IMG/VR virus record: IMGVR_UViG_2548876959_000011 | From: a virus | Lineage: Duplodnaviria; Heunggongvirae; Uroviricota; Caudoviricetes | Direction: 5' to 3' (one strand) | Length of the DNA: 51,013 nucleotides | Shown: positions 3,872 through 51,013 of the stretch, in pieces | Layout: each line of letters opens with the position of its first letter | How positions within the stretch are numbered: the first letter of the stretch is position 1 | Notes under the pieces: generated by a model | Databases searched by the model: none | Told to the model about the DNA's origin: nothing | Seen by the model: the letters and a program-made list of their open reading frames with translations, nothing else | Translations under genes and position numbers: made by a program

Positions 3872-6800
3872 TCAACTCTCGCGTAGTCATTCATCAACGG
3901 ATCATCAATTGACAGTGGCACCGTGCGCATAACGCCCGGTTGAGGCGTGCTGACCTTTACGACAGTTCCCTGGCCTTTCGCCGAGTCTTTAGTGTGCTCT
4001 TCAATCCTGGCAAGCAATGAGGTCATCTGCGCAAACAGCCGCTTCGTTTCACCATCAAGTGAAACGGTATTATCAGCCAACTGCATTGTCGGCTTGGCAC
4101 CGGAGCCGCCAAGGTCACTAATAACCTGTCCGTCTATCTGCATACGACCGGTTGGTTGCTGCAAATCGTTGGCGGCAGTCGTCACCTGGGACGTGGAGGC
4201 TGGTTCAGGCGCATTATTTTTCCGCATCCCCGGCGAGTTGCGGAGTTTATCAAATAGCCCATCAATCCCCATTTGTGCGCCGAGTTGGTCAAAGTAACTT
4301 GAGTTGCTGGCCACCGGACGCGCCTCTTCAACTGGCATCGGAGTATCAACATACACATTGCCAGCTGCTGTTGCGGTCCCCTTCCCTCGTGCACGTTCTT
4401 CGAGCGTTCCCTGAACGACTTCCCGACGCATACCCCGGCCATTCATGAATTTGTTGACCAGATCGTTAACGCCAACAGCATTGCCAATTTTGTCTACCAG
4501 ACCGCCTTTCTCAAACGGGCTATCACCAGGGGTAAACGCCAGGCCAGTAGACTGATCGATAACAGCGTTATCAGGCAGTGGTCCCCTCACTCCATATTGC
4601 GCCCCACCCTGTGCTCCTGCTCCAGGTGTATAGATTTCACCACCTAAATAGCGAGCACGATGAGTATTGACCTTGATCGCGTACTCACGGTTTTCTTTCG
4701 ATAAGTCACCTGTGCCTTTTTTCCACTTATTGATAGTGCCAAACCCAGCATTATATGCAGTGATGGCCTCGTTTAAGTCTCCATTGGCTTGCTTCAGATA
4801 TTTGCTCATGAGAAGAGCCGCAGCTTCTGCCGATTTCACAGGATCAAACGATTCACCTTCAGCTAAGCCAGTCTCTTCACGAGCAATCCCCGTGAACTGA
4901 AACATCCCCAGAGCACCGGTTTGGGATTTTGCATACGGATTACCACCAGATTCAGTTGCAGCAATCGCGTAAAGAGTGCCTTCTGGAAGACCGTATTTAT
5001 TCTCTAGTTCGGCAAAATACGGAGCCAACTTATCGAGATTTGCCTTACCTTCAGCGCCAAGACTTCCGACTTTTACATCCAAGTTGCCATTGTTGTAGGT
5101 ATCCGCAGCTTTCTGAATGTCATTCCTGGTGCCAGTGGTATTAAGCGACGATGATGACGAGCTATTTTGACCAATAGCTTTATCAATTTTCTGCAACGCG
5201 CTATTGCCCGTTTCTACGGCATTTGCATTGATAATCTGATTAGCAGTTTCTTTAACTGTTTTATTGCTATCTTTCGCCGTGTCCAGTGCCGCATTTATCA
5301 CGCGGGTAACAATATTAGTCTGTTTGGCATCGGATTCAGTTTTAGAATCAGATGTCTCCTGGTGGCTATTAACCGGAGCTTTTAACTCTGGAGTGATTTC
5401 TTTCGCATTAGCCTCGCCGATCGGATTGGGTATTTTTGATACAATCATTGCCGCAGGGGTATTTTTAACGGCATCAACCGCTGCATCTAATGCTTTACCT
5501 GGTAAATTTTTAACCCCATCCCAAATATTACCAGCCGCCTCTTTAATGTGTTTCCCTGGGTTCTTAATGAAATCAATTGCACTATCAATTGCATCACTGA
5601 AAACCTGTTTCAGGTTATCGACAGTAAAGAAGTCTTTGATGGCATCCAGCTTTTCAAGCAGCTTATTAGATGTATCGCTAAACCATGCTGAAACAGCATC
5701 ACCAATCTTTGCTGTGTAATCATCGAACTTGGTAGAAATGGTGTCGCCAAGGTTAGAAATATATGTTTCTAAGTTGGTAATCCCACTATCAATGGCATGG
5801 GCAATACTTTCCGTCGAAAATGATTGCAACATATTGCCGATATCCTCAAATCCAAGTGATTTGAGAACCTCACCAATGGCGCTGCTAATACCAGATACCA
5901 GTCCCCCCATATCAAGAATATTAGCTAACGTATAAGCGGCTTTTTGCTGGAATGATGGATCTTGTCCTGATTTAAGCCCAAACGCTCGACGTTGCGCTTC
6001 TGTATCATTCCAACCGGTTACCGCATCATAAATACCTCCAACCACTGTGCCGACTAGGGGAATTGCGCGTAACGCCCCTTTACCAACTGCCTTTAATCCA
6101 AGTTTACCTGCTGCCCGGGCAGCCAAATCTCCGCCTTCATGGGCGAGAGTCTTCTTACCACCACCGCGTAGCATTCCTACAAGTTTCTTTGCCCCCAGAG
6201 CGCCAAAAGCGAGTGCTCCAGCTTTTTTCAGCATGCCACGCCCCATTAACAACGACGCGACGCCACCGGCCCCCTTCCCTAACAGGCTAAATAGTTTGGA
6301 CAGCAAGCCGCCCTTCTTTTTCCCGGTGTTTTTGGCTATCTGATCAAGGGCGCTGAGAATCTTGTCATTGCCCTCTTTAATTTCGCTGGTCTGCTCCTGA
6401 AGTTCCTGAACCGTCCGTTTTTGGGTGTTAACCTGAACGACATCGGCACTATTTTGCGATTTACGCCTAAAAAAACCTTTTCTACGGCTGTTATCGTCAT
6501 TGCCACGAATCACATCGGCAATAGACTTTCTGGCACCATTAAGCGATCCGCCAACTTCTTTTGATATCCCGCCAAGCTCCTTCCCTGCTGCCCACAATGG
6601 ACCTGCAACGGCATAACCTAACGCATCGACAGCACGAGTCTCTGAAGGGTTACCTATGCCTTCAGCTACTTTTGACAGTTTTTTTAATAAACCTGATTCA
6701 GCATTTAGACGCTCATCATCCTCTTTTCGCCTGGCCTTTTCTGCTCGTTCAGCACGGGCATCTTCCGCTGCGGCCTTACTCCCTGACTTTCCAATAAAAC

Positions 6801-11006: not shown

Positions 11007-11189
11007 GTATTTTTAAGTCACGAATGCTATCTTTTCGCATCATATTGACCTTTTAATCGTTCAGGCTTATAGTTCCGCCGTCGTAGCAAATTCTGCGACC
11101 GGGTTTAGCAGCCTGAATGATTGTGCGGACAGCCGCAGATATCCGATATTGCGGTATTTTTGTGTCCGTAAAACCGCGTTACGCCCAAA

Positions 11190-11285
11190 TTATGGTGGGG
11201 CGTGATGGGGAGGCTTCGGCCTGCTGGTTTCACAATCGCCAGTCTGCTAACCCCGTCACGTCCTGCCACCTGTTTAGCAGCGGGT
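11190..11285 (+). ncRNA. c4: c4-like antisense repressor RNA region (approximate bounds)
   Basis: Structured leader upstream of icd/ant; tcacaatc (11232-11239) is complementary to gattgtga just upstream of the icd start; UUCG-looped hairpin and 7-bp stem ctgctaa/ttagcag. Confidence 0.35.
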
Positions 11286-14717: not shown

Positions 14718-14794
14718 TACAATCGTTGCGGGTGCTTGAGGCTATCTGCTTCAGGCATTACCCGAAAAGCAGATAGAAGAAAGCCCCAGATAAC

Positions 14795-14865
14795 ATTACG
14801 CGTCCTGCAAGACGCTTAACATTAATCTGAGGCAATATCTATGCTTAGCATACGTAGATTAGCCT
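14795..14865 (-). ncRNA. sok: putative Sok-like antisense RNA (approximate)
   Basis: Inferred from hok/mok architecture; reverse-strand TTGACC -35-like element near 14866-14871 and hairpin gcgtc/gacgc at 14800-14815. Confidence 0.3.
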
Positions 14866-15047
14866 CTTACCGACCAAAAGGTCAAGGAGAAGCAGGCTAT
14901 GAAGCAGCAAAAAGCGATATTAATCGCTCTGATCGTCATCTGTTTAACCGTCATTGTGACGGCACTGGTAACGAGGAAAGACCTCTGCGAGGTACGAATC
15001 CGAACCGGCCAGACGGAGGTCACTGTCTTCACAGCCTACGAATCTGA
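14841..15047 (+). CDS. mok: Mok-like reading frame overlapping hok
   Basis: 68-aa ORF in a different frame, starting upstream of hok and ending near the hok stop, as in hok/mok/sok loci. Confidence 0.5.
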   Translation: MLSIRRLASYRPKGQGEAGYEAAKSDINRSDRHLFNRHCDGTGNEERPLRGTNPNRPDGGHCLHSLRI

Positions 15048-42693: not shown

Positions 42694-43367
42694 TGGCACC
42701 CACAATTTATCACCGTATCGACGGTACCAAATACAGGAATGTCTGGGTTGTTGGTGATCTGCATGGTTGCTACACCAGACTGATGTCCGAACTCCATCGT
42801 GTGGATTTTGACCCGGCGCAGGATTTACTGATATCGGTCGGCGACCTTATCGATCGCGGTACTGAAAATGTCGAATGTCTGGAACTATTGCAGATGCCCT
42901 GGTTCAGGGCAGTGATGGGGAACCATGAGCGGCTGATGATTGATGCGTTAAGTCCAGATGGCAACGTGAATAACTGGCTAATGAATGGCGGACAATGGTT
43001 CTTCATGCTGGACACTGATCAGGAAATATTAGCTTGGGCGCTGGTGGAGCTGGTAAAGCGTCTGCCCTATATCATTGAGTTGAACACCGGGCAAGAAACT
43101 ATCGTTATAGCCCATGCCGACTATCCGGATAATGAATACCAATTCGGTAAGGAGGTGCCGCTTTTCAACGTTGTCTGGGCGCGCGAGCGTATCAGTGATT
43201 CGATGGATGATATTGGTGGCGAAATTTCGGGCGCAGATCGTTTTATCTTTGGTCACACTCCGGTGAAAAGCCCGAAGACATTCTGGAATCAGCAGTATAT
43301 CGACACTGGTGCCGTATTTTGCGGAAACCTGACATTGATGAAAGTGAAAGGTGATGGTGCAGCATGA
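42675..43367 (+). CDS. ppp: Ser/Thr protein phosphatase (lambda-PPase / calcineurin-like)
   Basis: Motifs GDLHG, GDLIDRG, GNHE. Confidence 0.85.
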
Positions 43368-44065
43368 AGATTGCTTTAGTTTTTCGCTCTGGTGGTGACT
43401 ATAACGCTTCCGATGTGCAGTGGCTGGTTAATCAACTGCCAAAAGGCTATGAAATTATTTGCCTGACAGACCTGAAGCGTTTACATGTACCTGGCGTCAA
43501 AGTTGTCCCATTGATCAACCAGTGGCAAAAGTGCCGTGGCTGGTGGGCGAAAATCGAGTTGTTCCGACCGGATATAACCGATGATCTGTTCTATCTGGAT
43601 TTGGACACGGTTATTGCCGGTGATATACGCCCAATCCTAGAGCATCCACCAACCAGCTTCACCATGCTTAGGGATTTTTACCATCCACAATATCGTGGCA
43701 GCGGTGCCCTGTGGATACCAAATAGTGTTAAAGCGCATATCTGGAGTTCATTCTGGCAAGATCCGGAAGGTTGGATTTCTCGTTGTGTCACTACTGAGTG
43801 CTGGGGTGACCAGGGGTTCTTACGAAAGGTTATGGGCGATGATACACCAGCATTTCAGGATCTGTATCCAGGATGGTTTGTAAGTTACAAGGCCGATGTT
43901 GTGGAACCTGGTTCAAAATATGCGAGCGCGCGTTACTCCAGGGGGAATGGGGCATTACCAAAAGACTGCCGAATAATCTTTTTCCACGGCAAACCGCGAC
44001 CTCGCGAAGTGTCAGAGGATTGGCTTCCCCTTATCAGCTCGTTTTTTGAGCGAGAATCAGAATAA
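43364..44065 (+). CDS. GT-A-like glycosyltransferase candidate (DXD motif)
   Basis: 233-aa ORF; [13 protein letters not shown] resembles GT-A DXD region. Confidence 0.4.
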
Positions 44066-44066
44066 T

Positions 44067-44083
44067 ATTGCTCTAATAATTCC
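44067..44083 (+). promoter_or_regulatory. C1 operator-like half of a palindromic operator pair
   Basis: ATTGCTCTAATAATTCC, 14/17 match. Confidence 0.5.
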
Positions 44084-44115
44084 ATATTTTTAAAACGTGA
44101 TGTACACTCATCACG

Positions 44116-44132
44116 TTTTTTATTAGAGCAAT
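44116..44132 (-). promoter_or_regulatory. C1 operator-like half of a palindromic operator pair (inverted)
   Basis: TTTTTTATTAGAGCAAT; reverse complement 14/17 match. Confidence 0.5.
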
Positions 44133-44146
44133 CTACAAGGTGCACT

Positions 44147-44365
44147 ATGTGGCCATTCCGACGGAAATATCACTACTGGCTGATCGCCTTTGTTACGCCG
44201 ACCGGCGGTATCAGGCATGTCATCACCAGGTATCGCAACAAGAGACTCACTTTAGCCAGAATTTTACAGGCTGCCATAGGTGAGGGACTGGATACAAATT
44301 GCGTAGTCCTTCCACCTTCATACTTAGGAAAAATGACCGAAGCACAAGCTAATACGGAACTTTGA
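44147..44365 (+). CDS. small hypothetical protein
   Basis: 72-aa ORF immediately upstream of the 420-aa ORF. Confidence 0.35.
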   Translation: MWPFRRKYHYWLIAFVTPTGGIRHVITRYRNKRLTLARILQAAIGEGLDTNCVVLPPSYLGKMTEAQANTEL

Positions 44366-44366
44366 A

Positions 44367-45629
44367 ATGAGCACTTCAGCACAAAACCAATCAATCGAAA
44401 ATGTATCTATCCCTGACGTCCTGAATGCCGGTATCCCGGCCATTATCCAGAACATCCGAGCCGCGCAACGCCGCGTTAGTTGTGATGACCTCACAGCGCG
44501 TTTTTTTGATAATGCGGTTCAGTCAGCGGAGATGCTTCACGCACAGCTTATTGATGTTTATAACGCAGAAGCTGATAGCCATAACTCCCTGGTAGATGCA
44601 GCTGAAAATATGCAGTTGGATCTCGGTCTGAAGGGTAAAGAAATTGAAGAGCTTCAGCTGGAAATTGAACATTTGAAACGCCAGCAACAGGACGCGATCG
44701 AAGATGCGACGCATGACGCCAACCAGCGTGCTGATAATGCCGAACGTATAAGCATTGAGCTGGAAACAAAACTCAATGAAATGACCGCGATGGTTGTGCT
44801 GCGGAACTCACAGATTTCAACTCTAAAATCTCAATATAAAGAGATCATGAAACTTGATCCTTTTAACCTTGAGAAACGCTATAACAAAGCCAAAAGCGAG
44901 CGACAGGAACTGCGTAAGCAGATTGTCGACCTTAACCAACAGCTCAAAAAGGCTATTAAAGATGCAAGCGAGGCGCGCGTGGCATTTGCTAATAAGAAAG
45001 CAGAGGTTACCGAGCTGGTTAATGAAAACGCCAAATTTGCGACGCTCAAGAAGGAAATGTATGGCATTACTGAGCGCCGTTTCCCTGCAAGCAAACTCCA
45101 TCCGACGTTAGGGCAAATCTCATTCTTCCCGCGCCTCCTGGCTTATGGGATCTCATCGCCTAAAGAGTTCAATAACGAGCGTCCTTATATCGTTTCTAAG
45201 CTGGACTTTGCTTATCAGTTCTGCTGCGACATGGGCTATGCCATTGATATCCGGATCAACGAATGGTTGATGCCAAACTTCCAGCCGTTGGCCATTTTCC
45301 GCGAGTTCCAGCCGGAAGGTTGGGTAGAGTTCTTCCATGAATTGATCTGTAAAGAGATGGAAAGCCGCCGCCCGGAACTGGTCCGTCGAGTTGAGTGGGC
45401 GCAAGAGGTTATGTTGGCAGATGCAGAGCTGCCGTTCGAACCGGAATTTATTGATGATCTGGCAGCTAAAGGGCTGCATACCCTGTTTGATGTGGTTACC
45501 CGCCGTCATGAGCAGTTGGTTGTCGAATTGGGTTTAGAGGAAACAGCGGCAAGAAGACTTCTCGATGTTTGCTATGCACGTAGCGATGCATGGGAAAAAG
45601 AGAACGGCGGCACTATTTACGTTCGCTGA
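44367..45629 (+). CDS. coiled-coil hypothetical protein
   Basis: 420-aa ORF; N-terminal half heptad-rich (LKGKEIEELQLEIEHLKRQQ). Confidence 0.5.
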   Translation: MSTSAQNQSIENVSIPDVLNAGIPAIIQNIRAAQRRVSCDDLTARFFDNAVQSAEMLHAQLIDVYNAEADSHNSLVDAAENMQLDLGLKGKEIEELQLEIEHLKRQQQDAIEDATHDANQRADNAERISIELETKLNEMTAMVVLRNSQISTLKSQYKEIMKLDPFNLEKRYNKAKSERQELRKQIVDLNQQLKKAIKDASEARVAFANKKAEVTELVNENAKFATLKKEMYGITERRFPASKLHPTLGQISFFPRLLAYGISSPKEFNNERPYIVSKLDFAYQFCCDMGYAIDIRINEWLMPNFQPLAIFREFQPEGWVEFFHELICKEMESRRPELVRRVEWAQEVMLADAELPFEPEFIDDLAAKGLHTLFDVVTRRHEQLVVELGLEETAARRLLDVCYARSDAWEKENGGTIYVR

Positions 45630-45701
45630 TAGTTACAGTGTCACTTTTAATGCTGGTGGAGTGCGCCCACCAGCATTTTTTTCGTCCAATGAGGAGGGCA
45701 T

Positions 45702-46208
45702 TTGAGTATTTTCAATAAACACGCACACCAGGAACGTCCGTATATCGTCATAGTCGATATTGATGGAACAATATCAGAGGCAACTGAAGACAGACTGCAT
45801 TTGCTTCCGCCACCAGGTAAAGGTGCATTAACAAAGGACTGGAACGAGTTTAATCTCGCCTGTGACACCGATACACCCATCACTCCAGTTATTGATATGG
45901 TGCGCCAGTTATTTAACGTTTACACGGTCTGGTTTGTAACTGGGCGCTGTGAGATCGCAAGGGATAAAACACGAGCCTGGCTGCGGAAGTACGTAACAAA
46001 CGGGGCTGAGCCTTTGCTATCTATGCGTCCTGCCACCGATGACAGAAATGACGGCCCAGCAAAGATTGATCTCCTTAAGAAAATTGGTCTAAGTAAAATC
46101 GCGTTCGCGCTGGAAGATAAGATTGAAGTGGCGCGTATTTTCAGGAGTCACGGCGTACTTACATTCATGGTCAGGGAGTATGAAAATGCGCTTCTTCATC
46201 AACAATAA
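45702..46208 (+). CDS. pap: HAD-superfamily phosphatase (P1 Pap-like)
   Basis: 168-aa ORF; DxDGT motif VIVDIDGTIS. Confidence 0.7.
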   Translation: MSIFNKHAHQERPYIVIVDIDGTISEATEDRLHLLPPPGKGALTKDWNEFNLACDTDTPITPVIDMVRQLFNVYTVWFVTGRCEIARDKTRAWLRKYVTNGAEPLLSMRPATDDRNDGPAKIDLLKKIGLSKIAFALEDKIEVARIFRSHGVLTFMVREYENALLHQQ

Positions 46209-46224
46209 TTGCTCTAATAAATCT
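46208..46224 (+). promoter_or_regulatory. C1 operator-like site overlapping the pap stop codon
   Basis: ATTGCTCTAATAAATCT, 16/17 match. Confidence 0.65.
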
Positions 46225-46306
46225 TGATTTTTAAGACAGGGGAAGTGAAAATAAAAACATGCCGCAAGGCGCGGCATGTATCCAATCAATCACAGGAGCT
46301 GAAAAT

Positions 46307-46393
46307 ATGAACACGGCATTCAAAATCATTATGGCCGCGATCTATTTCTGGCTGTTCTCTATCACTTTTGGCGGCATCGTCGCACATGGGTAA
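46307..46393 (+). CDS. small hydrophobic peptide (28 aa)
   Basis: Hand-translated MNTAFKIIMAAIYFWLFSITFGGIVAHG; AGGAG RBS at 46294-46298. Confidence 0.3.
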   Translation: MNTAFKIIMAAIYFWLFSITFGGIVAHG

Positions 46394-46402
46394 GGGGGAT
46401 GC

Positions 46403-47131
46403 ATGAAAGGCGAAGTGAAAGAGCGCGGCATGATTTTCAACGATGAGATGGTCCGGGCCATCCTCGAAGGAAGGAAAACGCAGACGCGGCGGATAATGAA
46501 AAATCAGCCTGCGGAAGTTGGTCCAGAAGCACCAGTGATGGTTAGAAAAATTGGTGCAGGTTTTCAGTGGTACGGGGCTGATGGTGTAAGCAGTGTTTTC
46601 AATTGCCCATTTGGTATCGTCGGCGATCGAATTTGGGTTCGTGAAACATGGGCGATATTAGGCAATGAGGATGGTTGCAGTGTGGACTGGAACGACAACC
46701 TTTGTCGTGGCGATGAGAAGAACGCAGCAAGGATTTATCGGGCCAGTTGCGAGCAAAAACCTGGTGATTACGGCTTATGGTCGATACCCGATGATGCCGA
46801 CTGGAAACCTCACACTGTGAATGAAAAGTTTGATGGTGGGTGGCGTCCATCAATTCACATGCCGCGATGGGCATCACGCATTCTGTTGGAAATTACCAAC
46901 GTGCGCGTTGAACGGTTGAACGATATCAGCGAATGCGATGCAAGGGCTGAGGGCGTTCCGCCTGCTGGAAGTTTGCTTCCTGATCACCCGGGAACATTCC
47001 TTACTCCCAAGGGGGATTTCGCAATGGCCAAGGTTGCGTTCCAGCGCCTATGGGAATCCATCTATGGTGAAGAAAGCTGGAACGCTAATCCCTGGGTGTG
47101 GGTAATCGAGTTTAAGCGCATTCAGGAATAA
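46403..47131 (+). CDS. hypothetical protein, possibly ASCH-like
   Basis: 242-aa ORF; N-terminal MIFNDEMVRAILEGRKTQTRR. Confidence 0.45.
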   Translation: MKGEVKERGMIFNDEMVRAILEGRKTQTRRIMKNQPAEVGPEAPVMVRKIGAGFQWYGADGVSSVFNCPFGIVGDRIWVRETWAILGNEDGCSVDWNDNLCRGDEKNAARIYRASCEQKPGDYGLWSIPDDADWKPHTVNEKFDGGWRPSIHMPRWASRILLEITNVRVERLNDISECDARAEGVPPAGSLLPDHPGTFLTPKGDFAMAKVAFQRLWESIYGEESWNANPWVWVIEFKRIQE

Positions 47132-47214
47132 ACCGTGAGTATGCATCAAATCGTCAGTTTTTCAGGTGGACGAGCATCGGCCTGTCTCGTTCATCTGTTC
47201 GAAGAGGTAGTGGC

Positions 47215-47418
47215 ATGACAATCGTAAAAACCCATACCGGCACCGTGATCACCAAAGACGGGCCGCAGGTAAAAAAACTGCACCAAACAGAGCGGATGTG
47301 GGTCGTCGGCAAAAATGAGTTTTACCACAAAGATACCGGACGCCGCCACTTTGCAGAAAATACGCGCCGTCGACTGCTGTTAGACACCATCAAGCCTATC
47401 GAGGTGAAGCATGTTTAA
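47215..47418 (+). CDS. small hypothetical protein
   Basis: 67-aa ORF. Confidence 0.4.
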   Translation: MTIVKTHTGTVITKDGPQVKKLHQTERMWVVGKNEFYHKDTGRRHFAENTRRRLLLDTIKPIEVKHV

Positions 47419-47650
47419 ACAGAACGAAAAAGCTATCGCTCAAATTGCTGATTATATCCCGCGTGCGTGCCGGGGTATGCAGTTGCAGGAAGCCAAAGCG
47501 CGCCTGGAGAAAAAAATTGCGCTCTATATTGATGACGGCTGTGATGCTGCCGTTCTTAACGCGGCGTTCGCACCAGCTCTTAACAGTCATACTCGGGAGT
47601 CTTTTTTTTCGTGCATCGAAGCGCAACTCCGCAAAGGAGGCAGCCAGTGA
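47411..47650 (+). CDS. small hypothetical protein
   Basis: 79-aa ORF ending ...LRKGGSQ, overlapping the next start. Confidence 0.4.
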   Translation: MFKQNEKAIAQIADYIPRACRGMQLQEAKARLEKKIALYIDDGCDAAVLNAAFAPALNSHTRESFFSCIEAQLRKGGSQ

Positions 47651-48348
47651 TCGAAATTAATTACCGGGCACTGCGTGAGATAGCAAAACAGGCAACACAG
47701 GGCGAATGGGTCGCATTTATTTCGCCGGGTACTGGTACGTATGCGGTGCATACGCCCGGTGATAAACGATGTGAAGACGTTATCAAATGGACCGGCTTTG
47801 ATGGACTGAAAAACGCAGAGAACAACGCTCGTTATATTGCCGCATTCAACCCAAAGGTTGCACTGGAGCTACTTGGTGAAATTAAGCGCCTGGAGGACAC
47901 AAATATTGATGCTATGTGCCGAATAGCACCGCTTGAGACTAAGCTCGCGGCTCTGGTGGCAGAGAACGCTGGGCTGAAACACGCAATGGCTGTAACTCTT
48001 GATCATGTGTCGGTCACGGATGCAGGGCAGGCCGGAGTTGCTGCAATGATTATCAACGATGCCCTACACCACAGCGAAACTCCAGCTACCGATGCTTTTC
48101 TGGCGGAAATTCGTGCGGAAGCACGCAACGAGGGGATTAACTATACCGCCAGCCGTCTTGCTGCTGCGTTCAATCACGGATTTATCAATACGTCTTTGCG
48201 TGAAGTTTTCGACGTTACGCGCATGATTCTGTCAGCGAAAGAAGAGTTGGCTAATGAACCGTACCCGATTGATGGCCTGTCCGGTGAATATGCGGAGAAA
48301 TCCCTTGAAGAATGGGCGGAACAGATTCGCAAAGGAGCTGACAAGTGA
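47647..48348 (+). CDS. modular coiled-coil protein
   Basis: GTG at 47647 after AAAGGAGG; N-terminal module VIEINYRALRE and ETPATDAFLAE module are shared with downstream ORFs. Confidence 0.5.
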   Translation: MIEINYRALREIAKQATQGEWVAFISPGTGTYAVHTPGDKRCEDVIKWTGFDGLKNAENNARYIAAFNPKVALELLGEIKRLEDTNIDAMCRIAPLETKLAALVAENAGLKHAMAVTLDHVSVTDAGQAGVAAMIINDALHHSETPATDAFLAEIRAEARNEGINYTASRLAAAFNHGFINTSLREVFDVTRMILSAKEELANEPYPIDGLSGEYAEKSLEEWAEQIRKGADK

Positions 48349-48755
48349 AGAAGATGATTTTTGTCGCGGCATTGTTGGTGAATATCCAACAAGTGCATGC
48401 TTCAGCAGCTATTGTAGCCTCTACCGCCGCGACTACGGCTGCTGTAGCTGCTGCGAACTCTGCGAATATCGCAAACCAACAGGCACAGCGTGCTGCTAAT
48501 GCATCAGCCAGCGTTCACCCAATCACCATTAAGAGCAGTAAGCAAAATCTGGGATTCATAACGTGCGGCACGCGTTCTAATGAAGCTGTAGGCTCTCTGG
48601 GATGTACGGTATATGGCGATAGTGAGCGCAGAGAAATTCCATGGAAAACGTGGCCCGGATACGTTCTCGGATCGAAGCTCCCTGCCAGCTACGAAGTAAA
48701 TGCCGTATCGTTTGATCACTATAACGGCGTGGCAACTGTCTATTTTACATACTGA
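48345..48755 (+). CDS. secreted protein
   Basis: 136-aa ORF; signal peptide MKKMIFVAALLVNIQQVHASAA. Confidence 0.5.
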   Translation: MKKMIFVAALLVNIQQVHASAAIVASTAATTAAVAAANSANIANQQAQRAANASASVHPITIKSSKQNLGFITCGTRSNEAVGSLGCTVYGDSERREIPWKTWPGYVLGSKLPASYEVNAVSFDHYNGVATVYFTY

Positions 48756-48763
48756 GGCTCCGC

Positions 48764-49417
48764 ATGAAATTCTCCAAATTTTCTGAGTTGGTGAATCGTA
48801 TTTTGTTGAATCGTATTTTGTCCAACAACCACAGCCATCGTCGCGATATGGATGTAACGATCGTTGTTCATTCGCCTGGCAGCATTGGTTCAACACCTTC
48901 AGTTGAGGTTCAGTCAATTCATGCTGGTTTTGATTGGGATTCCGGGAAAGTGCTTATTTTCCCAGCACAGCCACTGACCACGCTAACACCAGAGCAGGTT
49001 GCTGATATCACTGATAGTGTGCGCAAAGGTCAGTCTTGGCACGCATATCAGGAATATAAAAAGCATAAAGAGCAGTTGGAAAAATTGTCGATTGAACTGG
49101 ATGCTGCAAAACAGCGCGTAGCAGAACTGGAGGCCAGTCGCGTGACGCTGGCGGAGGAGAACTCGTGGCTGAAGATGCTCATAGAAGATCATGCTGGTTG
49201 TACTGCTGTCTGCCCAAATTGCTCTCATGAAGAACCCAGTGAAACAGACGACATTGTTTGGTCTTACCGTTCACGGGAAACGCCAGCCACCGATGCTTTC
49301 CTGGCTGAAGTCCGGGCGCAGGGCGTGGAGATGTTTGCGGAGTGTGCATACACGCTTGAACATCATGATCACGCAGTAGCCTTCGCCGCTGAGCTTCGCA
49401 AAGGAGGCAACCAGTGA
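48764..49417 (+). CDS. modular coiled-coil protein
   Basis: 217-aa ORF; C-terminal ETPATDAFLAEVRAQ...ELRKGGNQ module. Confidence 0.5.
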   Translation: MKFSKFSELVNRILLNRILSNNHSHRRDMDVTIVVHSPGSIGSTPSVEVQSIHAGFDWDSGKVLIFPAQPLTTLTPEQVADITDSVRKGQSWHAYQEYKKHKEQLEKLSIELDAAKQRVAELEASRVTLAEENSWLKMLIEDHAGCTAVCPNCSHEEPSETDDIVWSYRSRETPATDAFLAEVRAQGVEMFAECAYTLEHHDHAVAFAAELRKGGNQ

Positions 49418-49932
49418 GCGAAATTAATTACCAGGCACTGCGTGAGGCGGCAGAACGTGCAACTCCAGCAATGGAACGCCTGTTAATGTTGCCAGTTGAT
49501 GATGATTTGTTAAGTGAACAGGAACTTAAAGATTACGGTGTGGATATTGATGCGCTCAACGCCTTCAAATTTCTGACCGGACCAGAAACCGTGCTGGCAC
49601 TGCTGGATGAACGGGAAAGAAACCAGCAATACATCAAACGCCGCGACCAGGAGAACGAGGATATTGCGCTAACGGTAGGGAAGCTGCGCGTTGAGCTTGA
49701 AGCAGCAAAATCAAAACTCAACGAGCAGCGTGAATATTACGAGGGAGTAATCGCGGATGGAAGTAAGCGCATAGCAGAACTGGAGGAGCGGGAAATACTG
49801 CTCCCGGAACGTAGCAGCATGCTTCATCGAACAGATTTTCACGATGATTACCAAACGGTAATGGCATACAAAGTTTCTGAAGTCATCGCTGCAATCCGCG
49901 CCGCAGGCATTCGCATCAAAGGAGGTGAGTAA
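49414..49932 (+). CDS. modular coiled-coil protein
   Basis: GTG start after AAAGGAGG; N-terminal SEINYQALREAAERAT module paralogous to the 47647 ORF. Confidence 0.5.
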   Translation: MSEINYQALREAAERATPAMERLLMLPVDDDLLSEQELKDYGVDIDALNAFKFLTGPETVLALLDERERNQQYIKRRDQENEDIALTVGKLRVELEAAKSKLNEQREYYEGVIADGSKRIAELEEREILLPERSSMLHRTDFHDDYQTVMAYKVSEVIAAIRAAGIRIKGGE

Positions 49933-50107
49933 TGCGTGTGGCATGTATCGGCTTGTTACCGTACCCGACTCGTTTTTGGGCTTCTGCGCTAATTGCAAAG
50001 CCGTATGTCCTGATGGCTGACAACATCATCCCGGCACCAAAGCGCCGCCATACCGGTATTGCAGCGGCACGACGAGCAGCAAAGAGACGCAGGAGAGCAA
50101 AGCGATG
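49932..50107 (+). CDS. small basic protein (58 aa)
   Basis: Hand-translated; Arg/Lys-rich C-terminus; stop overlaps next start (ATGA). Confidence 0.3.
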
Positions 50108-50282
50108 AAAAACCGTAAGGCAAAACGACTTTTTTTACAGCGACCTGTGCGTGTGGTGGAGCTGGTTATTAGCAACCATAAGATAGCGGTACTCCATCCA
50201 TTTGGTCAGGTGGCTTTTGCCGCAAAGCGTAAGCCTACTGCGTCACAGAACAGGCGGAAGAAAGGGTACGCTGTAAGATGAA
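50106..50282 (+). CDS. small basic protein, MKNRKAK paralog 1
   Basis: Hand-translated MKNRKAKRLFLQRPVRVVELV...; ATGA overlap with the next ORF. Confidence 0.35.
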
Positions 50283-50466
50283 AAACCGTAAAGCAAAGAT
50301 TCTGTTAGTTCGTAGAAACGCTCCTGGCGTCTGGCAGTGGGTGAGACTCAGCAACCGACGGATGGGGTTGATGAAATATTACGGGATGATGGATTGTGGT
50401 TTTTGCAAAAAGCCCAGCGCGGCGCAAAACCGCTGGAAAAACCACTTGCGCACTAAAGGAGAGTGA
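50278..50466 (+). CDS. small basic protein, MKNRKAK paralog 2
   Basis: 62-aa ORF MKNRKAKILLVRRNAPGVWQWV... Confidence 0.4.
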   Translation: MKNRKAKILLVRRNAPGVWQWVRLSNRRMGLMKYYGMMDCGFCKKPSAAQNRWKNHLRTKGE

Positions 50467-50467
50467 T

Positions 50468-50962
50468 ATGGCGTTAACACACCGCGAACTCTGTCAGATT
50501 GCGTATAAGTTCCTTAAGCGCAACGGGTTCAAGGTTTGTTTTCATGACCGCTTTATAGCTGTAACCAGTACCGGAGAACAGCCAGATGCTATGGGATTCA
50601 GAAATTCAGCATCATGCCTGATAGAAGCGAAGTGTTCTCGTGCTGACTTGTTAGCAGATAGAAAAAAGCGTTTTCGTAAAAATCCGTCTCTTGGAATGGG
50701 CGACTGGCGATTCTTTATTAGTGAGCCGGGAATTATTTCAATTGAGGATTTACCACCTGGCTGGGGATTACTTCACGTTGTTAACGGAAGAGTACGGAAA
50801 GTACATGGGTGGCCCAAGGGTAATTGCTGTTGGGGTAATCCTGACGATAAGCCATTTACTGGAAATAAGCAGGTTGAATGCGATTACATGTTATCTGCAT
50901 TAAGGCGCATGGAGTTGAGAGGGCACCTTAATGAAATATATGACGGTGTAATTGTTAGGTAA
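50468..50962 (+). CDS. putative PD-(D/E)xK-fold protein
   Basis: ATG at 50468 after AAAGGAGAG RBS (ORF-track entry 50396 extends upstream in frame); PDAMGF...CLIEAKCS matches D...ExK pattern. Confidence 0.4.
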   Translation: MALTHRELCQIAYKFLKRNGFKVCFHDRFIAVTSTGEQPDAMGFRNSASCLIEAKCSRADLLADRKKRFRKNPSLGMGDWRFFISEPGIISIEDLPPGWGLLHVVNGRVRKVHGWPKGNCCWGNPDDKPFTGNKQVECDYMLSALRRMELRGHLNEIYDGVIVR

Positions 50963-51013
50963 TGACTCCAACTTATTGATAGTGTTTTATGTTCAGATAA
51001 TGCCCGATGACTT

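Follow-up and report, generated by a model that had tools for sequence, protein, structure and literature searches.

Why should two junctions between different genes of one operon carry almost the same 50 nucleotides? The question arises in IMG/VR record IMGVR_UViG_2548876959_000011, a viral sequence of 51,013 nt (the window, in what follows) that is a P1-like phage-plasmid, as judged by the hallmarks of Punavirus. In its array of small accessory genes the 50-mer CGCAAAGGAGGCAGCCAGTGATCGAAATTAATTACCGGGCACTGCGTGAG occurs twice on the + strand, each time at the start of a gene of the Ead/Ea22 family (genes A and C; Table 1). We propose, with a probability of about 80%, that this repeat is a composite joint for homologous recombination inside one long accessory-gene operon of the phage-plasmid. 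The evidence comes from the anatomy of the repeat, from natural variants in which the crossovers can be mapped, and from the assortment of the genes that flank the same joint elsewhere.

The repeat combines a reused linker with a conserved gene start

The two copies are identical at 47 of 50 positions. An earlier note on this DNA had claimed a 50-bp direct repeat with three mismatches, and alignment bears it out once the claimed positions are moved by +2 nt for the first copy and −1 nt for the second. The match is not a product of base composition, as 100 dinucleotide-preserving shuffles of the window yielded zero second matches of the 50-mer at three or fewer mismatches. Self-comparison of the locus, a check that the note had suggested, recovers the pair as an ungapped extension of 81 nt with 81% identity (47616-47696 versus 49383-49463) at a spacing of 1767. 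Each copy holds the three elements that had been ascribed to it: the stop codon of the upstream open reading frame (ORF; TGA at 47648-50 and 49415-17), a Shine-Dalgarno (SD) sequence AAGGAGG and a GTG start (47647 and 49414) that overlaps the stop as GTGA. In the RefSeq annotation of an identical plasmid, the start of gene A is exactly the GTG at 47647.

The repeat is a composite of two segments, a reused linker of 21-27 nt and the conserved gene start of a pair of Ead/Ea22 paralogs. The linker, CGCAAAGGAGGCA[A/G]CCAGTGA, encodes an in-frame tail ...(L/I)RKGG(N/S)Q-stop, places the SD sequence AAGGAGG 6 nt ahead of the next start and finishes in the GTGA overlap of stop and start. When the junctions of 13 related plasmids and phages are taken together, its consensus extends to [C/T]T[C/T]CGCAAAGGAGGCA[A/G]CCAGTGA. 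The downstream 29 nt of the 50-mer are the conserved beginning of Ea22-type genes. The linker is found at three junctions of the window, the third copy being degenerate and limited to the upstream half of the repeat, and at many junctions of unrelated genes in the 13 relatives, where its downstream partners include DUF4752 genes, a 136-aa gene that is also present in the window, and others.

Folding of the RNA at these junctions gave mixed results. Two window copies allow the SD sequence to pair with an upstream CUCC or CUUC (z = −2.4 and −1.9). A stable hairpin is absent from the third (z = 0.05), and the bases needed for pairing are not present in every family of upstream genes. For these two reasons we do not claim an SD-occluding RNA hairpin at the joint. 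No RNA element in Rfam matched there.

Crossovers map within the repeat in natural variants

We located the ends of homology by comparing 46300-50500 with 16 related plasmids and phages in local blastn searches. Homology edges fall at 47650 and 47655 in repeat copy 1 and at 49402 and 49415 in copy 2. The homology of seven relatives ends at 48336, inside the third linker copy and directly after AAAGGAG, and a further edge (48759) stands 5 nt before the ATG of gene B. Other edges lie at internal shared motifs, at 49161, 49277-49333 and 49582-49710. Breakpoints within 25 nt of a gene junction make up 31% of 408, compared with 13% expected, in a set of loci that are related and partly selected for the linker; for that reason we do not rely on a p-value for this enrichment. 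The exchange of modules that the earlier note had proposed is thus supported by breakpoints at the repeat, at gene junctions and at internal shared motifs, together with the near-free assortment of flanks described below.

In plasmid pSBF45b, the stretch from 43301 to the repeat matches the window at 98.6% identity and the sequence that begins with the second copy at 98.4%, and exactly the 1767-bp unit between the repeats is absent. Comparison of relatives for the presence of the intervening genes, which the note had also suggested, therefore yields a collinear element that differs by this one unit. Copy 1 has G, T, G at the three mismatch sites, and copy 2 has A, G, A. As pSBF45b reads G, G, A, its crossover lies inside the repeat, between 47643 and 47666; the middle site is uninformative because the T at 47651 is private to the window lineage. 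The predicted product of recombination between the two copies, built as 47300-47650 joined to 49418-49800, is contiguous in 56 of 5,426 complete Escherichia coli genomes, and the window's own arrangement is found in 3 of them. The suspicion that the repeat marks a deletion hotspot accordingly has support in natural variation.

Other relatives carry joints of other kinds. In pZ0117EC0062-2 the joint is different and the crossover lies within CGCAAAGGAGGCA. In pO26_10153_1, gene A is fused to a B-like tail at the internal repeat that encodes ETPATDAFLAE (48076-48117). Plasmid p95_MLI121 carries gene A, the 136-aa gene and the first part of gene B behind another upstream gene, with homology from 47655.

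Two further observations concern these elements. The Ea22 genes downstream of the deletion-type joint in pSBF45b (4348-5714) are annotated as pseudogenes, partial or frameshifted. A separate direct repeat of 21 nt (95% identity), at 50104-50124 and 50277-50297, marks the starts of tandem paralogous ORFs (58 and 62 aa, MKNRKAK...), and two of the compared elements (L002 and L009) are without exactly 50125-50276, a repeat-mediated pattern of presence and absence on a smaller scale.

Unrelated genes assort almost freely across the linker

The exact 21-mer linker occurs in at least 120 phage contigs of IMG/VR but, among about 185,000 species-representative genomes, in a single one, an Escherichia, which places it in the phage pool of the Escherichia group. 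Within that pool, lambdoid prophages, Stx phages and P1-like plasmids, all of which have E. coli as a host, carry the same linker between many genes that are otherwise unrelated. We deduplicated its instances to 111 unique contexts of 201 nt and clustered the 60 nt beyond the conserved segments on each side. The resulting 20 upstream and 25 downstream families occur in 73 combinations, close to the 81.9 ± 2.8 expected under free assortment and far from the 25 expected under complete linkage, and 81 four-gamete quartets can be formed among them; these figures count configurations and not independent events.

Pairwise identity is 1.0 in the linker and reaches background (about 0.3) past ∼15 nt upstream and ∼60 nt downstream. 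Seven downstream families that are not of Ea22 type are each joined to two to five upstream families; past the linker the identity among them is down to 0.28, and upstream of it the exact match goes on for a median of 2 nt. Since these families share no homology past the linker and so little before it, their crossovers must lie within the linker itself. The linker is thus a conserved boundary between non-homologous segments, with combinatorial flanks and with breakpoints that fall on it.

Many unrelated upstream ORFs have in common a longer tail, ...F-A-A-(Q/E)-L-R-K-G-G-N-Q-stop, with an invariant G at position −9 (the first base of an Ala codon). Positions −14 to −1 upstream of the linker may reflect either extended DNA homology or a constraint at the level of the peptide.

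How exchange at the linker could proceed

In the mechanism that we propose, the linker serves as a portable gene boundary. It ends the upstream ORF in frame, supplies a strong SD sequence and overlaps the stop with the next GTG, and the GTGA overlap suggests that the genes on its two sides are probably translationally coupled. Because the joint closes one ORF in frame and gives the SD sequence and start of the next, an exchange within it would yield intact, expressed genes, and linker recombinants would survive for this reason. Exchange between co-resident elements would replace or insert a cassette, and exchange between two copies in one element would delete or duplicate the 1767-bp unit. Partner copies are abundant, as pieces of the locus are present in 2,990 of the 5,426 complete E. 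coli genomes, at up to eight places per genome; from this distribution, a P1-like plasmid would commonly share its cell with lambdoid prophages that bear the linker and carry Red or RecET functions. The most plausible enzymes would be single-strand-annealing recombinases encoded by phages (Red-beta/RecT type); RecA could instead act on the 50-80 nt version of the repeat. Enzymes of the Red/RecET type are reported to recombine short, diverged homology efficiently (Martinsohn 2008, De Paepe 2014; PMC2327257, PMC3945230).

Several points weigh against this account. Many breakpoints lie within genes, at the Ea22 coiled-coil core (49582-49710), so that the linker is one joint among several. For exchange by RecA, 21-27 nt of homology is a short stretch. 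Recombination at the joint in this element is read from the comparison of natural variants, and the 1767-bp difference fits a deletion in pSBF45b as well as an insertion in the window. The census loci were chosen by an exact match to the linker and many are related prophages, so that counts and p-values overstate independence. Random illegitimate joints filtered by selection would also give breakpoints at gene boundaries, and the SD and GTGA part of the linker's conservation can be explained by constraints on expression alone.

The last two points lead to the explanation that fares best after our own, in which functional constraint is all that conserves the repeat. The SD sequence, translational coupling and the peptide motifs (the RKGGNQ tail and the EINYQALRE head) would be under selection, and the mosaic boundaries would come from illegitimate recombination at random, with selection then keeping intact genes, as in the Hendrix model. 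Selection does put surviving breakpoints at gene ends, and the bases always kept in degenerate linker copies are the SD core and AGTGA. The invariant Ala three residues before the R-K-G tail (position −9) and the pairing of the SD sequence with CUCC or CUUC in two of the three window copies, which fits coupling, can be read in the same way, although the lack of a stable hairpin in the third copy cannot. Constraint also does not account for the spacer GCA[A/G]CCA, which has no known role in expression and yet is identical in more than 100 unrelated contexts. The tail residues change where the DNA changes (RKGSSQ, RKGADK, RQGGNQ and HKGGNQ), and the crossovers map within the shared bases, not randomly nearby. 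We therefore regard constraint as an unlikely sole explanation; it is compatible with recombination at the joint, since constraint would create the homology.

Alternatively, the repeat could be a relic of paralogy, left when an ancestral Ea22 gene and its junction were duplicated in tandem; the repeat would then be the slowest-diverging remnant and have no role in rearrangement. Genes A and C are indeed true paralogs (both in PF13935, with 30% BLASTP identity over 109 aa), genes A, B and C all match PHROG 368, and tandem Ea22 genes are common among the relatives. The upstream halves of the two copies, however, belong to unrelated ORFs (one of PHROG 1344, the other gene B) that are alike only in their tails, which contradicts a relic there, and the linker also precedes genes that are not of Ea22 type. 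Nor does simple descent sit well with a repeat that is 94% identical between DNA that cannot be aligned on either side, with flanks that assort almost freely or with crossovers inside the repeat in natural variants. This explanation is very unlikely.

Hardly credible is a dedicated site-specific or cassette-mobilising system that targets the linker, comparable to integron attC sites or to PeSL cassettes in T4-type phages. The standard ends, the way the units behave as cassettes and the very narrow range of the linker across taxa (1 of about 185,000 species representatives) would suit it, but the joint has neither an inverted repeat nor an attC-like structure, its folds are weak and inconsistent, and it lies in coding sequence. 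The crossover points differ among variants, as general homologous exchange predicts. Profile searches of the ORFs in 43364-50962 found no adjacent recombinase gene, and no promoter- or terminator-like sites were seen on the + strand of 46210-50960. On these grounds we rejected both an integron-like attC cassette (the joints lack an inverted repeat, and the ORFs nearby include no recombinase) and a PeSL-type promoter/terminator cassette (no such sites, junctions in coding sequence).

A second junction class and the end of Ea22 proteins

Gene C ends at a junction of another class. Its end, ...GIRIKGGE-stop, lies in GCATTCGCATCAAAGGAGGTGAGTAATG (49907-49934), a variant of a sequence that we call class 2: GCATTCGCATCAAAGGAG[A/G]GTGA, then one base, then ATG, encoding the ...IRIKGE-stop end of Ea22 proteins. 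We found the class-2 core TTCGCATCAAAGGAG[A/G]GTGA in at least 120 phage contigs. Of 96 unique class-2 contexts, 89 have a start codon with an open frame exactly 1 nt after the TGA, and identity falls to background right after the ATG. Assortment across this junction is again close to free, with 15 upstream and 23 downstream families in 61 combinations, compared with 69 ± 2.5 under free assortment.

All Ea22 proteins are reported to end in K/R-G-E, the significance of which is given as unknown (PMC7093339). Class-2 junctions offer a simple explanation for this published open point. From the sequences, the K-G-E end is probably what results when AAAGGAG, which serves the next gene as its ribosome-binding site, is translated in frame. 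Lambda ea22, which ends in GGCATTCGCATCAAAGGAGAGTGAGATC (L139 1040-1075, − strand), probably keeps a relic of a class-2 junction in which the ATG has turned into ATC. For annotation, this carries the warning that short protein termini shared by phage ORFs can be joints at the level of DNA instead of functional peptide motifs.

A wider generalisation may be drawn, although we consider it doubtful. In it, a few standardised junctions that contain an SD sequence (class 1, ...RKGG(N/S)Q-stop with GTGA, and class 2, ...IRIKGE-stop, one base and ATG) would be universal connectors for the accessory early genes of temperate phages of the Escherichia group. Their flanks would be near linkage equilibrium, and exchange would cross the divide between prophages and phage-plasmids. 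The bases outside the SD sequence would be kept by selection for exchangeability or by a dedicated recombination function, not by recent common descent, and the +GE end of Ea22 would be a by-product of the DNA joint.

Genes of the locus and their surroundings

The ORFs of 43364-50962 are all on the + strand and tightly packed. Coordinates of the genes and junction features are collected in Table 1.

Table 1. Junction features and genes of the accessory-gene locus (window coordinates)
Feature	Position	Strand	Description
Repeat copy 1	47630-47679	+	Class-1 linker CGCAAAGGAGGCAGCCAGTGA (47630-47650; tail RKGGSQ-stop, AAGGAGG, GTGA) and the first 29 nt after the overlap, gene A
Repeat copy 2	49397-49446	+	Class-1 linker CGCAAAGGAGGCAACCAGTGA (49397-49417; tail RKGGNQ-stop) and the start of gene C
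Degenerate third linker copy (upstream half only)	48323-48348	+	AGATTCGCAAAGGAGCTGACAAGTGA; tail IRKGADK-stop, GTGA overlap; ahead of a non-Ea22 gene
Internal direct repeat, copy 1	48076-48117	+	ETPATDAFLAEIRA; encodes ETPATDAFLAE(I/V)RA
Internal direct repeat, copy 2	49277-49318	+	ETPATDAFLAEVRA; 83% identical to 48076-48117 (42 nt)
Class-2 junction variant	49904-49934	+	CAGGCATTCGCATCAAAGGAGGTGAGTAATG; gene C tail ...GIRIKGGE-stop, SD sequence, ATG of next ORF overlapping the stop (TAATG)
79-aa ORF	47411-47650	+	PHROG 1344; C-terminal tail makes linker copy 1
Gene A	47647-48348	+	233 aa, Ead/Ea22 family; PF13935, 90.3 bits; N-terminus IEINYRALRE; tail ...AEQIRKGADK-stop
136-aa ORF	48345-48755	+	PHROG 8805; signal-peptide-like N-terminus, MKKMIFVAALLVNIQQVHA followed by SA
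Gene B	48764-49417	+	217 aa; PHROG 368; distinct N-terminus (PHROG 6026), then RETPATDAFLAEVRAQGV...FAAELRKGGNQ-stop; tail makes linker copy 2
Gene C	49414-49932	+	172 aa, Ead/Ea22; PF13935, 130.5 bits

We took membership of PF13935 (Ead_Ea22) as a score above the Pfam gathering threshold of 27 bits, which genes A and C both exceed. In an alignment of 128 positions, gene C and lambda Ea22 are 65% identical; the alignment covers the N-terminal segment and the coiled-coil core, and the C-terminal domains differ. The earlier note had described a shared N-terminal module as (V/S)EINY-ALRE; genes A and C, both downstream of a repeat copy, have it in the form (I/S)EINY(R/Q)ALRE. Gene B gave no Pfam hit and so falls outside PF13935. 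It matches PHROG 368 (7.7e-57), as genes A and C do, and aligns to gene A across the helical region and ETPATDAFLAE (E = 2e-6). The latter motif had been described as a shared C-terminal module. It is common to genes A and B, but it is near the C-terminus only in B, and lies mid-protein in A (residues about 144-154). The coiled coils that the note had ascribed to the flanking ORFs are expected by homology to lambda Ea22 (PMC10834534), and the Ea22 proteins of lambda and Stx phages are described as prolysogenic and of tetrameric coiled-coil architecture (PMC7093339, PMC10834534).

The 136-aa ORF is a rare allele of its slot, as most P1-like relatives carry a DUF4752 gene between the breakpoints at 48336 and 48759. 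NCBIfam has no family for any of the cassette proteins, and a sequence search of the PDB gave no solved-structure match for gene A or gene C. We rejected a role in defence or anti-defence: PADLOC gave only a sub-threshold coiled-coil hit for gene B, and none of the locus proteins matches a defence model. Gene B also contains a 15-nt tandem duplication, TTGGTGAATCGTATT / TTGTTGAATCGTATT (48788-48817), which appears in the protein as LVNRI-LLNRI.

The locus lies just downstream of pmgR, pmgS and a 3'-phosphatase gene, with a gene order that matches phage RCS47. The window encodes a PmgS-like protein (5e-193) and the 3'-phosphatase, and P1 hallmark RNAs lie within 11067-11273, 14730-14904, 31067-31220 and 32848-32923: the C4 antisense RNA with its a1/b1 targets, a sok-like antitoxin RNA (114 bits), tRNA-Asn(gtt), tRNA-Thr(tgt) and tRNA-Met(cat). 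By its position, the locus corresponds to variable region 8 of P1-like phage-plasmids (PMC9603915), and it holds here genes of the lambdoid early-left or exo-xis type (Ea22, eaa, DUF551 and ASCH). The 2,801-nt query 47300-50100 is 100% identical in three non-mobilizable E. coli plasmids of 85-102 kb.

Two strong, terminator-like G+C-rich hairpins with T tracts (45649-45677 and 46257-46279) bracket the 3'-phosphatase gene. The latter was called on the − strand and lies just upstream of the accessory-gene array, which begins at 46403. At the other end, window positions 50958-51013 are the left terminal repeat of IS1 (GGTAATGACTCCAACTTATTGATAG...), which truncates a 164-aa ORF (50468-50962; PHROG 9263/631). 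The homology of pSBF45b and pO26_10153_1 stops at 50957. A 74-nt query of the IS1 end matches more than 5,000 plasmids at IS1 transposase genes. In NC_050153 (1-74), a PmgR homolog is labelled 'RNA-directed RNA polymerase L', an evident mis-annotation.

Comparison with known systems

In Botstein's modular theory of 1980, linkers stand between exchangeable modules (as outlined in PMC2839356), and Clark et al. 2001 (HK620, J Mol Biol 311:657), as cited in PMC2327257 and PMC3945230, described exchange of lambdoid modules at "flanking, short and conserved sequences". The joint described here is a linker in Botstein's sense; it adds a well-documented case to a mechanism of phage mosaicism that is already known. 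As in those systems, a short conserved sequence flanks unrelated modules, a homologous swap keeps order and expression, and the host pool is the same, the temperate phages of E. coli and Salmonella. In contrast to the earlier linkers as those papers summarise them, the sequence is specified here (21-27 nt with an SD sequence and GTGA) and the assortment of its flanks is quantified. The scale is also different, that of single genes within an operon, and the linker is shared by a P1-like phage-plasmid and lambdoid prophages.

The position of the locus, and its high variability amid conserved elements, agree with variable region 8 between pmgT and humD (PMC9603915). P1-like variability and gene flow between phage-plasmids and phages are reported in PMC9603915 and PMC10879196, and a joint at the level of sequence is not described in the parts of these papers considered. 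Relative to the literature covered in this way, the new elements are a defined linker sequence, figures for how freely its flanks assort, its occurrence in the variable region of a P1-like element and natural variants whose crossovers are mapped. The general principle is not new. The joint is defined precisely enough for testing. It gives a concrete mechanism, at the level of sequence, for one known variable region of P1-like phage-plasmids, which are of growing interest as carriers of resistance genes, and it shows that region 8 and the lambdoid prophages, those of Stx phages included, draw on one pool of accessory genes.

That ea22 genes are mosaic has already been published (PMC10834534). 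As described in PMC7093339 and PMC10834534, the lambda Ea22/exo-xis genes resemble those of the present locus in having a shared N-terminus and coiled coil, unrelated C-terminal domains and a +GE terminus. Unlike the lambda exo-xis genes, the Ea22 genes found here are carried on a P1-like plasmid, with three family members in tandem and with other C-terminal domains.

T4-type phages have PeSL cassettes (Arbiol et al. 2010; PMC2839356), which are similar in that short regulatory repeats flank single genes and mediate their insertion, deletion and replacement among related phages. They differ in that a PeSL element is an intergenic promoter plus stem-loop that provides autonomous transcription, whereas the linker consists of an SD sequence and a start embedded in the end of the upstream ORF. 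Finally, integron attC cassettes share with the units described here the form of promoterless single-gene units that have standard ends and assort combinatorially. An integron, however, has an integrase and an imperfect-palindrome attC site, and the P1-like locus has neither; its crossover positions vary, and its genes would be exchanged by general homology.

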